A DNA stretch of 64,000 bases from an uncultured Clostridia bacterium (GCA_944390345.1 CALXPP010000002.1:26060-90059), one strand, 5' to 3'; counted from the first letter of the stretch, positions 29,720-33,089 are shown. The notes: generated by a model not told the origin, from the letters alone. A program made the numbers and translations.

Positions 29720-29748
29720 TTTACAAATAAAAAATACCGTGCTATAAT
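29720..29748 (+). promoter_or_regulatory. Sigma-A-type promoter of the sipW/TasA-like operon
   Basis: TTTACA (29720-29725), a 17-nt spacer, then TATAAT (29743-29748). This leaves a leader of about 235 nt before the first ORF. Confidence 0.6.
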
Positions 29749-29986
29749 CCAAACCAAGTTAAATATTTTTTAGCGTAATTTTTAAATATTCTAATTAAAA
29801 GATTATCTTCATTCTGAAGTATAATTGAATTTCCAAAAAATTAAAATTGAATATTAATATAAAAGGAAAAGTTTTAGTCAGATTTTTGTTTTAAGTTTAT
29901 TTATGCCCCCGCAAAATAAGTCTAGTCAAAAATATTAGATTTTACTGTTAAAAAATATTTAACACTATTTTTTATAGAAAGGAGGT

Positions 29987-30559
29987 ATGCCTTTGAACAA
30001 AAAAAGAGCAATTGGAATGCTCATAGTTCTTTCCTTAATACTTTGTATTTTCTTAGCAGGTTATACTTTTGCTAAATATTATACTGTTGTAGATGGAGGT
30101 GGAAAAGTAGGAATTGCAAAATGGTCTTTTGTAGCAAGAGACAACAATAATAATATTACAAATATTTCTTTAATAGATACAGCAAATGAAGTAAGTCTTG
30201 CAGAAGGAAAAATTGCACCAGGTACACATGGAAGCTTCGATATTATTATAGATGCTACTGGTTCAGAAGTTGGTGTAGATTATGATGTAAACATAGTTTC
30301 AGAAACAAATATACCAACAAATATGAAATTCAAACAAAAAGACGGCAGTAATTCGTATTCTAGCTTAAAAGCATTAGCAGATACAGAATTAAATGGAACC
30401 ATTGATTTAGCAGAAAATAACAAAGTTAAGACAATAACAGTAGAATGGGAATGGCCATACGAAACGGAAAACGGCGATAATGCTGATATGGTCAATGGAA
30501 CTAATGCTGGAAATTATCAATTTGCTTTACAAATTGTAGGAAGCCAATCAAAACTTTAG
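29987..30559 (+). CDS. TasA/camelysin-like secreted protein, putative major fibre subunit
   Basis: About 190 aa with a basic N-terminus and a hydrophobic helix ending ..LAGYTFAKYYT. The rest is beta-rich: GKIAPGTHGSFDIIIDATGSEVGVDYDVNI ... TVEWEWPYE ... YQFALQIVGSQ. It is adjacent to sipW. The true start may be TTG 29993, which is 6 nt after AGGAGG. Confidence 0.6.
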   Translation: MPLNKKRAIGMLIVLSLILCIFLAGYTFAKYYTVVDGGGKVGIAKWSFVARDNNNNITNISLIDTANEVSLAEGKIAPGTHGSFDIIIDATGSEVGVDYDVNIVSETNIPTNMKFKQKDGSNSYSSLKALADTELNGTIDLAENNKVKTITVEWEWPYETENGDNADMVNGTNAGNYQFALQIVGSQSKL

Positions 30560-30623
30560 TAATGTAGTATCCAATTTTTCGTAAATTAAACCTTATATTA
30601 TCCAAATATATTATCCGAATAGA

Positions 30624-30643
30624 CAGAGAGCTATAGCTCTCTG
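30624..30643 (+). promoter_or_regulatory. Perfect 20-nt palindrome / stable hairpin without T-run between subunit gene and sipW
   Basis: CAGAGAGCTA|TAGCTCTCTG folds as an 8-bp stem with a 4-nt loop in RNA. No U-tract follows. Confidence 0.5.
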
Positions 30644-30713
30644 CTAAGGTAATTCACAAGAATTGTTTTAGTAGAAAGCTAATAGCAGTTAAACTAAAGA
30701 AAGGAGTTTCGAA

Positions 30714-31208
30714 TTGAAAAAAATTATTCAAAAGATTATTTTATTCATACTAATTTTAATTCTATTATTTACCTTATATTCTAAATTTATTTTAAAAGAA
30801 AATCTAATTAAAATAGCTGGAAAAGCAGTACTAATAGTAGTTACAGGAAGTATGGAACCAGAAATTATGGCAGGAGAATTAATAGTTATTAGTGAATCTA
30901 AAGACTATCAAATAGGAGATATAGTAACCTATAGGGAAGATGGAGAATATTTAATTACACATAGAATTACAGAAAAACAAGAGGATTATTTAATAACCAA
31001 AGGAGACAACAACAATTTAATAGACAATCCTATAAATGAAAGTCAAGTAGAAGGAAAAGTTATTTTTCATTCAAGATTGTGTGGATTTTTTGTACTTTAT
31101 CTATTAAAACCTATTACTTTAGCTTTAATATTAATAATATTAATAAAGGATAGTACAATTTATATATTTAAAAATAAAGAGGTTAAGGAGAAAGAAAGCA
31201 AATGTTAA
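30714..31208 (+). CDS. sipW: Signal peptidase I, SipW (archaeal/eukaryal) type
   Basis: It has an N-terminal TM helix, then VTGSMEPEI, ITHRI and TKGDNNNLIDNP, plus a C-terminal TM helix. It uses a TTG start after AAAGGAG. Confidence 0.8.
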   Translation: MKKIIQKIILFILILILLFTLYSKFILKENLIKIAGKAVLIVVTGSMEPEIMAGELIVISESKDYQIGDIVTYREDGEYLITHRITEKQEDYLITKGDNNNLIDNPINESQVEGKVIFHSRLCGFFVLYLLKPITLALILIILIKDSTIYIFKNKEVKEKESKC

Positions 31209-31696
31209 AGAAGAAAGGCATATATATAGTAAGTATACTTATAATACTGTTAGTTATAATAATTAGTTTTTCAAAAGCAAATTATAAACAAATTATACAA
31301 GGAAATGGAGTAGTATCTATTGCAAAACCAATAGTTGAAATAAAAACAGGAAATAAAATTTTAAAAGAAGCATATAACGGAATGGAAAGTATAGATTTTA
31401 ATTTTGATGTGCAAAACTACAAAGAAGAATTAATTAGTGAGTTAGATTTTGAATATGTAATTAGCATAAAAGAAACGGAAAAGAATTTTCCAATAGAATA
31501 TGTTTTACTAGATGAAAAAGGAAGTAAAATACCCTTAAAAAATAATACAAGCAGTAAGATTTTGCTGAAAGGAAATGAAAAAGAAAAACATAGCTATACT
31601 TTAAGAGCTAATTGGAAAAGCAAATTAGGCGATTTATCAGCTTCAGATAATATAAAAATAGAAGTTGAAGCGGTACAAAAAATTAATAGAAAATGA
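31202..31696 (+). CDS. TasA-like small secreted protein (putative minor subunit)
   Basis: 164 aa. Its start overlaps the sipW stop by 7 nt. The signal helix ends ..IISFSKANYKQ, followed by VSIAKPIVEI. The rest is beta-rich and ends IKIEVEAVQ. Confidence 0.55.
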   Translation: MLKKKGIYIVSILIILLVIIISFSKANYKQIIQGNGVVSIAKPIVEIKTGNKILKEAYNGMESIDFNFDVQNYKEELISELDFEYVISIKETEKNFPIEYVLLDEKGSKIPLKNNTSSKILLKGNEKEKHSYTLRANWKSKLGDLSASDNIKIEVEAVQKINRK

Positions 31697-31902
31697 GGAA
31701 ATTTATGAAGGAAGAAAAATATAAAATTACTACTTTTTTAAAACTAATTTTAATAATTATTTTATTAATAATATGCATTGTTACAAGTTTTGTAACAGGA
31801 CAGAAATATTATGATTTAAAAAATACACAGTTAAAAAATAGTAATTCACAAATAAGTACAGATATAGCTAAATGGAAATTTAGAGTTACTGTTGTATATT
31901 AA
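31693..31902 (+). CDS. 69-aa signal-anchor + N-terminal-strand-only mini-protein
   Basis: It is coupled to the upstream ORF through an ATGA overlap. A hydrophobic helix is followed by VTGQKYYDL and then ..DIAKWKFRVTVVY*. Confidence 0.45.
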   Translation: MRKFMKEEKYKITTFLKLILIIILLIICIVTSFVTGQKYYDLKNTQLKNSNSQISTDIAKWKFRVTVVY

Positions 31903-31913
31903 AAGGAGAGAAA

Positions 31914-33089
31914 ATGAAGAAAAAATTATTTTTAAGTATTATAATAATGAGTATATTGTATTTAATAATTCAATTTAGTTTATCAAAGTATAATTATAAA
32001 ATATCTGTAGAAGCTTTTGAATTTACGAGAGACACTAGTTTACCAATAGTAAATATTTCGTATTCTACAGAAGAGCCTACTAATAGCCCTGTAACAGTAA
32101 CAATACAAGTAGATAAAGAAGTTCTAGCAGTAGATGGGTTTATTTGGAACAAAGAAAAGAAAACTTTAACTAAAATAGTAACAGAAAATGAAGAAAATAA
32201 AATAGTCTTAGAAGATCTTTCAGGAAATAAATTGGAAGTATCTTATAAGGTAGATTGGATAGATAAAATAAAGCCAGAAATATTAGGAATAGAAAATGGA
32301 AAAACTTATAATGCACCAGTAGATATTTTATATAAAGATAATGTAGGAATAAAAAGTGTAGAAGTTCAAAATTATGGATATTTAGAGCTTGAATTTAATG
32401 GAATATCTCACGATACAGAAAAGAAATATGCCTTTGATTATACAGATTCTACTTGTAGATTAAGAGTTATTCAAAAACCAAGAGAAACTGTTAAATTTAG
32501 ATATTATTGTAATGATATATTTTGCATAGAAACAACAGAAGAGGAATATACATATAAAAATCTAGAAAAAGACATTGAAGGAATAAAGTTTACAGTAGAA
32601 GCAATAGATAGAAACGGAAATGTAATTGAAAGAAGAGAAGAAAAAGGTCGTACTGCTAACTATAAAAGTGTGAGTGTAAATAAAAATAACTTAGGTGCAA
32701 CAGTTGCTTTAAGTGGAATTGATTCAAAAGTTAGAAGTGTTAGATATTATATTTGGGAAAGAGGAAAACAGGATTCAACTCAAGTAGGATACGAGACTTT
32801 GGTAAATAATTCTAGTGCAAATTTATCTTTTAAAATAAGTGATTTTAACAATAAAAAATGTGTATATACAATGCATATATATACAGTCGATTTTGATGGA
32901 ACGCTTAGTCTAGTAAATGGAATAGATATAGAAATAGGTAAAAATTATAATCCTGATTTAGAAGAAAAGGTAGAAATAATAGAAAAACCAACAAATGTCA
33001 ATAGATTAGAACAAAAAGGCAGATATATTATAAAAGCAATAGATTTAGCAGGAAACGAAACAGAATATATAATAAGAATAGACAATTAG
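31914..33089 (+). CDS. Large accessory secreted protein carrying the same N-terminal motif; beta-rich/Ig-like-looking
   Basis: 391 aa with SD AAGGAGAG. The signal helix ends ..QFSLSKYNYKI. Segments such as PTNSPVTVTIQVDK and DKIKPEILGIENGKTYNAPVDILY suggest Ig-like domains, judged by eye. Confidence 0.55.
   Translation: MKKKLFLSIIIMSILYLIIQFSLSKYNYKISVEAFEFTRDTSLPIVNISYSTEEPTNSPVTVTIQVDKEVLAVDGFIWNKEKKTLTKIVTENEENKIVLEDLSGNKLEVSYKVDWIDKIKPEILGIENGKTYNAPVDILYKDNVGIKSVEVQNYGYLELEFNGISHDTEKKYAFDYTDSTCRLRVIQKPRETVKFRYYCNDIFCIETTEEEYTYKNLEKDIEGIKFTVEAIDRNGNVIERREEKGRTANYKSVSVNKNNLGATVALSGIDSKVRSVRYYIWERGKQDSTQVGYETLVNNSSANLSFKISDFNNKKCVYTMHIYTVDFDGTLSLVNGIDIEIGKNYNPDLEEKVEIIEKPTNVNRLEQKGRYIIKAIDLAGNETEYIIRIDN

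Follow-up and report, generated by a model that had tools for sequence, protein, structure and literature searches.

Organization of the operon

The DNA analysed here, a stretch of 64,000 nucleotides (nt) from an uncultured Clostridia bacterium (GCA_944390345.1 CALXPP010000002.1:26060-90059; hereafter the window, with a GC content of 27%), contains at positions 29,720 to 33,089 a compact operon for a SipW-type signal peptidase and four of its candidate substrates. An original prediction made from the sequence alone had proposed that these genes form a dedicated-peptidase system for an extracellular fibre or biofilm matrix, akin to that of TasA in Bacillus. Five open reading frames (ORFs) lie on the plus strand: ORF1 (29987-30559; 190 amino acids, aa); ORF2, the peptidase (30714-31208; 164 aa), which starts at a TTG with AAAGGAG 8 nt upstream; ORF3 (31202-31696; 164 aa); ORF4 (31693-31902; 69 aa); and ORF5 (31914-33089; 391 aa), which has a good ribosome-binding site, AAGGAGA. 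ORF2 and ORF3 overlap by 7 nt and ORF3 and ORF4 by 4 nt (ATGA), and a gap of 11 nt separates ORF4 from ORF5. The positions, common direction, overlaps and gap are all as they were originally given.

A sigma-70-type promoter on the same strand, TTTACA-17-TGcTATAAT (29720-29748), matches 11 of the 12 consensus positions, carries a TG extension and is the top-scoring consensus site of the region; both of its hexamers are kept in the related loci L001-L003, which come from three species. The 5' leader (29755-29986, plus strand) measures about 232-238 nt from the -10 hexamer to the ATG, so both the promoter and the leader of about 235 nt that had been predicted were found. The intrinsic terminator of the upstream DUF5671 gene (29634-29674, plus strand), a hairpin of -19.9 kcal/mol followed by TTTTTT, forms the 5' boundary of the operon, and the gene 3' of ORF5 has a promoter of its own. 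ORF1 to ORF5 are therefore regarded as one unit.

The peptide motifs first noticed at the signal ends of the four other proteins were all found again, GYTFAKYYT in ORF1, ISFSKANYK in ORF3, VTGQKYYDL in ORF4 and FSLSKYNYK in ORF5, as was the motif IAK(W/P)x(F/V) common to ORF1, ORF3 and ORF4. When the 64-kb window was scanned for a transmembrane (TM) segment followed by a K-Y motif, ORF1, ORF3 and ORF5 were picked out, and the variant in ORF4 was recognized by eye; the sole other match, at 26441-26662, was a shadow ORF of 73 aa on the complementary strand. Because the K-Y motif is almost confined to the operon and is also conserved in family alignments, which were drawn from 80 related loci described below, its sharing goes beyond chance.

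A SipW-type signal peptidase

Signal peptidase I enzymes of the SipW type have the boxes GSMxP, His and GDN, the His standing where those of the P type carry Lys. In the translation of ORF2 the catalytic boxes read VTGSMEP, ITHRI and TKGDNN, as first reported, and there are hydrophobic segments at the N- and C-terminus. Against TIGR02228, the model for endoplasmic reticulum (ER)/archaeal-type signal peptidase I, ORF2 scored 99.4 bits (curated cutoff 51.85), and against the bacterial P-type model TIGR02227 it scored 26.1 bits, under the cutoff of 47. By these profile scores ORF2 is a SipW-type (ER/archaeal-type, Ser-His) signal peptidase I, in agreement with the original prediction, and not a housekeeping enzyme of the SipS/SipT type. 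It is not an orthologue of Bacillus SipW, because its 68.4 bits against the SipW equivalog model NF046067 fall below the cutoff of 190.

ORF1 and its protein family

ORF1 had no match in Pfam, NCBIfam, PHROGs or a PDB sequence search. A large protein database held 222 close relatives, and no Pfam domain and no informative name was attached to any of them; an exhaustive profile search found at least 5017 cluster representatives (50% identity) at E ≤ 1e-3, of which 2162 reached E ≤ 1e-10. A scan of a genome collection gave 80 loci with ORF1 relatives, every one from an uncultured metagenome-assembled genome (MAG), with Clostridia as the label of nearly all; the source samples were from the guts of humans, ruminants, rabbits, chickens and mice. 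Among these relatives, all of them uncultured MAGs, no identical, already characterized locus was found. Judged from these searches, ORF1 founds a large family whose tested members match no Pfam or NCBIfam model, the 2,172 family members of the paper on BsaA of Clostridium perfringens lying outside this comparison.

In the family alignment, a signal end of the form G-x-T-[FY]-[AS]-K-Y is followed by Y31-x-T-x-V, a G-x-G turn and an invariant A44-x-W46-x-F48; further blocks are IAPGTxGSF, IDATGSEVxxxY, WxWPYE and a C-terminal YxFxxxIxGxQ. The conserved early positions of the mature protein are K30, Y31, G37, G39, A44, W46 and F48, and acidic and amide residues are conserved further on (D89, E94, N112, E159, D164 and D167). 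The ratio of nonsynonymous to synonymous substitution rates (dN/dS) of ORF1 was 0.11-0.21. An ORF1-family domain also stands at the N-terminus of proteins of 570-957 aa (P0361, P0280 and P0335), which carry surface-adhesin repeats: Flg_new (Listeria-Bacteroides), InlB B-repeats and GLUG.

The design of ORF1 can be read as a signal peptide, an N-terminal extension (KYxTxV; A44-x-W46-x-F48) and a predicted beta-sandwich core. AlphaFold2 (AF2) models were made of ORF1 as a monomer, both full length (from a 44-sequence alignment) and as the mature protein (from a 99-sequence alignment). The full-length model, with a mean predicted local distance difference test score (pLDDT) of 68.6, has a TM helix at residues 5-26 and a beta core at 59-187 with pLDDT of 80-93, and residues 25-57 are disordered; the mature model has a mean pLDDT of 73.6 and a predicted template-modelling score (pTM) of 0.73. 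When the full-length model was compared with the PDB by Foldseek, the TasA fibre 8aur_A ranked first (E 8e-4, probability 0.99). With the mature model, the TasA entries 5of1_B, 5of2, 5of1_A and 8aur_A took ranks 1, 3, 4 and 7 (E 1.3e-3 to 4.8e-3, probability 0.97-0.99, TMq 0.36-0.41), and the donor-strand pilins FimG and PapE ranked high in both searches.

The signal-end motif

The consensus of the ORF1 family at the end of the signal peptide is ..FLxGxTxAKYxT.., and that of the TasA family is ..LVGGGTWAAFND.. Common to the two are G-x-T-aromatic-A at positions -5 to -1 and an aromatic residue at +2 (for example, GxT[FY]A|KY vs GGGTWA|AF), the T-F-A of ORF1 matching the T-W-A of TasA at -3 to -1 by eye. 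Positions +1 to +4 differ, with K-Y-x-[TS] in ORF1 and A-F-[NS]-D in TasA. Mature TasA begins at A28 (PMC10151520, PMC9674648), and by analogy the substrates of ORF2 would be cut at TFA|KYY in ORF1, SLS|KYN in ORF5, VTG|QKY in ORF4 and SKA|NYK in ORF3. The motif had first been described as non-canonical, which fits the residues after the cut, but the canonical T-aromatic-A is kept at -3 to -1; since -5 to -1 and +2 are shared with TasA, the novelty of the motif is limited to +1 to +4.

ORF3, ORF4 and ORF5

ORF3 has a signal peptide, FSKA|NYK, an IAKPIV strand in which Pro stands in for the strand Trp, and a beta-rich body that ends in IEVEAVQ. Comparison of the ORF3 family (45 sequences) with the ORF1 family by hhalign gave a probability of 97.9% (E 6.7e-13) over 104 columns, which run from the signal through the K-Y motif and the IAK[PW] strand into the first strands of the core; the probability dropped to 29% once the signal peptide was removed. 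The position of the ORF3 gene is conserved in 54 loci, and the large protein database contained only 2 homologues. The conserved Lys of the family is Asn27 in the ORF3 of the window (FSSA|KY in relatives, FSKA|NY here). From its sequence, ORF3 is best called a distant, divergent paralogue of ORF1.

ORF4 consists of a signal anchor, SFVTG|QKYYDLKNT, and then DIAKWKFRVTVVY at the C-terminus, leaving about 34 residues past the signal peptide. It aligns to residues 7-51 of ORF1 (probability 95.8%), and on its own the mature part matches the G-x-G...IAKWxFxV strand of ORF1 (probability 84%, E 7.5e-6). Profile comparison thus relates both ORF3 and ORF4 to ORF1, bearing out the kinship among the substrates that was first proposed. 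Versions of ORF4 of 65-81 aa occur at 11 loci, and all of them end in [IV]A-x-[WF]-x-F-x-[VA]-x-[IV]-x-Y-stop; compared with close relatives, dN/dS was 0.15-0.30. On this comparative evidence ORF4 is a real gene under purifying selection that encodes a signal anchor and an ORF1-type N-terminal strand only. An alternative ATG at 31705, with GAGGA upstream, may be its true start.

ORF5 shares only the signal region and the K-Y motif (FSLS|KYNYK) with ORF1, ORF3 and ORF4, and within its own family K25 and Y26 are invariant. Weak domain matches to GBS_Bsp-like and to fn3 were each found in 4 of 16 family members. ORF5 is predicted to be a secreted accessory protein of several beta-sandwiches (Ig/Fn3-like), a candidate adhesin or anchor.

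Gene order in related loci

The conserved order at the 80 related loci, where the presence of SipW was scored within ±6 kb, is ORF1, SipW (23 of 80), ORF3, then either a full-length ORF1 paralogue or an ORF4 mini-gene, and last a protein of 350-530 aa with a K-Y signal. Genes of the ORF4 type were present at 10 of the 23 SipW-containing loci and at none of the 57 without SipW. At five loci (L035, L045, L069, L073 and L079, at about 6000-7550 in each) the cluster is reduced to three genes, ORF1, SipW and ORF4, without ORF3 and ORF5, and is followed by the housekeeping genes that also follow in the window. This arrangement suggests, as far as gene content can indicate, that ORF1-SipW-ORF4 is a minimal module. 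In L069, L073 and L079 the SipW frame is split in two, possibly by a frameshift or an assembly error.

Non-coding elements

The spacer between ORF1 and sipW holds a conserved RNA element (30569-30681, plus strand) with direct repeats, ATATTATCC occurring twice, and two hairpins. Identity to L001-L003 is 89-93% in its main block (30569-30655) and 77-91% in the 3' arm of its long hairpin (30660-30681), in the same species for which the synonymous rate (dS) of ORF1 is 0.5-1.1, near saturation. A short perfect hairpin (30624-30643) and a long hairpin (30634-30655/30660-30681) are mutually exclusive, and the folding z-score of the spacer is -3.2. The loop of the long hairpin varies in length among relatives, with 2 compensatory pairs in the consensus, and the spacer hairpin has no U-tract. 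The element may act in mRNA stability, processing or partial termination, or as a switch, and so set the stoichiometry of subunits.

The AT-rich leader has conserved blocks in common with L001-L003, and within it a G+C island, TTTATTTATGCCCCCGCAAAATAAGTC (29896-29922, plus strand), is common to L001-L003 and L081 only. A reading of this island as a small upstream ORF (ATGCCCCCGCA, MPPQNKS..., with synonymous changes) was considered and set aside because it has no Shine-Dalgarno sequence. An Rfam scan (E ≤ 1) of the leader and the ORF1-sipW spacer found no match, the c-di-GMP riboswitch included.

A proposed fibre and its alternatives

The reading that we favour, as the probable one with considerable room for doubt, is that this chromosomal operon encodes a SipW-dependent extracellular fibre akin to those of TasA and BsaA, either a pilus or a filament of the matrix, but from a divergent and so far undescribed sequence family. 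The minimal N-terminus of TapA suffices for TasA-dependent biofilm in Bacillus subtilis. In C. perfringens, SipW is required for extracellular BsaA polymers, and a terminator after bsaA yields a short abundant transcript together with read-through (PMC7395162). TasA assembles by donor-strand exchange (PMC9674648), as does BsaA (PMC11580942).

In the mechanism that we propose, the single strong promoter would drive all five genes, and the conserved hairpin after ORF1 would probably raise the ratio of ORF1 to the minor components, a role suggested by the analogous terminator that sits after bsaA. ORF1, ORF3, ORF4 and ORF5 would be exported by Sec and cut by the ER-type peptidase after T-F-A, S-x-[AS] or T-G and before K/Q/N-Y, a position proposed because it matches TWA|AF of TasA. 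The mature ORF1 beta-sandwich would then insert its N-terminal extension (Y31-T33-V35, A44-W46-F48) into the next subunit by donor-strand exchange. Two features are indirect evidence for such polymerization: the disorder of residues 25-57 in the monomer model, as expected of a donor strand, and the alternation of the invariant A44, W46 and F48 within the extension (i, i+2, i+4). ORF3 and ORF4 would be minor components, acting as initiator, cap or adaptor, with ORF4 the natural counterpart of the minimal TapA N-terminus, and ORF5 would serve as an adhesin or cell-surface anchor. A further step, possible but on balance doubtful, is that ORF4 represents a new class of component, a SipW-processed free donor strand of about 34 residues that nucleates or caps a chaperone-free fibre, with ORF1-SipW-ORF4 as a minimal self-sufficient kit.

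Several results weigh against a fibre of this kind. SipW is absent within ±6 kb from 57 of the 80 related loci, so the link to the peptidase is not obligatory; of the dedicated peptidase originally predicted, the ER/SipW type of ORF2 stands, but its adjacency extends to just 23 of the loci. TM-scores between ORF1 and TasA are only 0.30-0.41 (below 0.5), with E values of 8e-4 to 5e-3, and the scores of generic jelly-roll and CUB domains are only a little lower. With top-ranked TasA matches this modest and generic folds this close, the fold evidence favours a TasA-like beta-sandwich in the ORF1 models and falls short of proof. Of the TasA-like substrates originally envisaged, ORF1 thus has models that rank TasA first, at modest scores, but ORF5 is not TasA-like. 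Nor did any sequence or profile method link ORF1 or ORF3 to TasA, camelysin or the SipW-cognate TIGRFAM models, the comparison that the original prediction had put forward. Against a fresh 34-sequence alignment of Bacillus TasA, hhalign gave the ORF1 family a probability of 9% and the ORF3 family one of 0.1%; searches with hidden Markov models (HMMs) were null both ways; and in the PDB nothing above noise was retrieved by sequence and profile searches that started from ORF1 or from the families of ORF1 and ORF3. PF12389 was unmatched by ORF1, ORF3, ORF4 and ORF5, as were the SipW-substrate models TIGR04087-04090, of which TIGR04088 describes the SipW-cognate signal peptide. None of 44 diverse ORF1-family members matched PF12389 or TIGR04087-04090 even at E ≤ 10, and PF12389 weakly matched 1 of 45 ORF3-family members (E 0.008). 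The C-termini of ORF1, ORF3, ORF4 and ORF5 carry no anchoring signal (LPXTG and TM segment), and no sortase adjoins the operon.

Much of this would also suit a set of non-polymerizing beta-sandwich surface proteins, secreted or membrane-anchored (adhesins or proteins of the cell envelope, for instance), that share a signal peptide which the peptidase merely matures or releases. The TasA matches are modest and CUB, lectin-like and other jelly-roll folds score alike; adhesin or surface repeats occur in ORF5 and in the fused members of the ORF1 family; there is no sequence homology to any proven fibre subunit; and most related loci have no adjacent SipW. We nevertheless consider this explanation unlikely. 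The invariant alternating A-x-W-x-F falls within a stretch that the monomer model leaves disordered, and ORF4, a strand without a globular domain, makes little sense in the absence of a partner groove. Clusters of several paralogues are typical of pilus operons, and TasA and the donor-strand pilins come out at the top of both fold searches.

That ORF4 is a decaying, non-functional remnant of a full-length ORF1-like paralogue seems to us quite improbable. It would account for the alignment of ORF4 to only the N-terminal ~45 residues of ORF1, and for the fact that in most loci with an ORF3 the next gene is an ORF1 paralogue of 175-280 aa. However, a remnant should hardly show the constraint described above (dN/dS of 0.15-0.30), nor a length held at 65-81 aa with the C-terminal xFxVx[IV]xY-stop invariant across 11 deeply divergent loci. 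Translation of ORF4 is coupled to that of ORF3 by the ATGA overlap, with an alternative start that has its own Shine-Dalgarno sequence, and ORF4 persists in the three-gene clusters that lost ORF3 and ORF5.

A type IV pilin-like, pseudopilin or sortase-assembled pilus can be set aside as highly improbable: each of the proteins does have a basic N-terminus and one hydrophobic helix, some related loci precede large proteins with prepilin-looking N-termini, and secretion of BsaA and BsaC in C. perfringens needs type IV pilus proteins (PMC11580942), but no window ORF has a G|FTLxE prepilin motif or a pilin-like N-terminus, no N_methyl match was found in the operon's proteins or in members of the ORF1 family, the operon is without a prepilin peptidase, ATPase, sortase or LPXTG, and its peptidase is of type I, ER-type. 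A phage module was also considered and dropped, since a PHROGs scan gave no meaningful match.

Relation to known systems

Among the closest comparisons for a fibre of the TasA/BsaA kind is the tapA-sipW-tasA operon of B. subtilis (PDB 8aur, 5of1). Both have an ER-type signal peptidase within the operon and a major subunit of about 20 kDa that is a beta-sandwich (predicted here, with TasA as best structural match), and both major subunits have a G-x-T-aromatic-A| signal end, an aromatic +2 residue and an N-terminal extension suited to donor-strand exchange. Both also have an accessory protein that relies essentially on an N-terminal strand: TapA (residues 44-57) and, as proposed, ORF4. Unlike the Bacillus proteins, those encoded here have no detectable sequence or profile similarity to TasA and no PF12389 match, and K-Y-x-T rather than A-F-N-D follows the cut. 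The major subunit comes first, there are four predicted substrates instead of two, the TapA-like role would fall to a 69-aa protein without an Ig domain, and the host is an uncultured gut Clostridia bacterium of 27% GC.

The sipW-bsaA-bsaB-bsaC operon of C. perfringens likewise combines SipW, in a clostridial host, with a major subunit, a minor subunit paralogous to it and a bigger secreted accessory protein; it has an RNA hairpin or terminator right after the major-subunit gene and does not need a sortase. As a difference, the NCBIfam SipW-substrate models TIGR04088-04090, of which TIGR04089 covers the C. perfringens CPF_0494 family, are unmatched here. The N-E-K isopeptide triad of BsaA is not evident in the ORF1 family, because there is no conserved Asn in the first ~20 mature residues; K30 is conserved in the donor segment, and the family might have a reversed, Lys-donor arrangement. 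The accessory protein here is Ig/Fn3/Bsp-like and not vWA, no two-component system lies in the operon, and there is an extra strand-only mini-protein. Gene order and number of substrates differ from both the Bacillus and the C. perfringens operons, as the original prediction had it.

Chaperone-usher pilins such as FimG and PapE, among the top fold matches of ORF1, are also Ig-like subunits in which an N-terminal strand completes the fold of a neighbour, but the present system has a Gram-positive envelope, lacks both chaperone and usher, and shares no sequence similarity with them. The filaments of archaea that use donor strands (ABP/AbpA, threads and cannulae) are Ig-like or jelly-roll and also rely on an ER-type signal peptidase I; unlike the pilins, they were not among the top structural matches.

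The TasA/BsaA family is known to be widespread and sequence-divergent, and its genes often share an operon with that of a signal peptidase and with several paralogues (PMC11580942). That TasA-like operons with a signal peptidase are widespread and divergent is, as a general concept, already published. What is plausibly new here is a sequence-divergent operon of the SipW/TasA/BsaA type with a strand-only component and a very large unannotated family. Surveys of genes for TasA-like matrix proteins would undercount, since neither Pfam nor NCBIfam detects this family of thousands. In Bacillus and C. perfringens, the protein scaffold of biofilms is formed mainly by SipW-dependent TasA and BsaA fibres, and the locus offers a concrete, compact candidate scaffold for uncultured low-GC Clostridia, a group plentiful in the guts of humans and animals. 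Its strong promoter, its five small genes and the three-gene version in relatives make heterologous expression feasible. If ORF4 is indeed a strand-only nucleator or cap, it would offer a clean way to study how donor-strand fibres without a chaperone begin and end, and could serve as a template for peptide inhibitors of such fibres.

Neighbouring genes

Just upstream of the cluster, a 4-TM membrane protein of the TIGR04086 family together with birA was found at 44 of the 57 SipW-less loci vs 4 of the 23 with SipW (examples of the membrane protein are L055 2375-2761, L044 1542-1934, L063 2603-2989 and L016 5354-5752). This protein was considered as a substitute for SipW and ruled out, as it has no peptidase signature; the pattern is probably an effect of clade or context. 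Downstream of SipW-less clusters lie large proteins (L055 6265-8151, L044 7737-9884 and L063 7576-8967) with prepilin-looking N-termini, ..GITLxSLxxTIxxLLIL.., none of which matched the N_methyl model of Pfam and one of which has a Laminin_G_3 lectin domain. They are of interest because of the dependence of BsaA and BsaC secretion on type IV pilus proteins noted above.

In the window, two tandem genes for DUF5671 membrane proteins (107 and 139 aa; 28876-29620) lie directly upstream of the operon and end at the strong terminator described above. Downstream of ORF5 are genes for an HD-domain protein (33150-33788) and an Asp23/AAA-like protein (33799-34653), which adjoin the cluster in many of the related loci.

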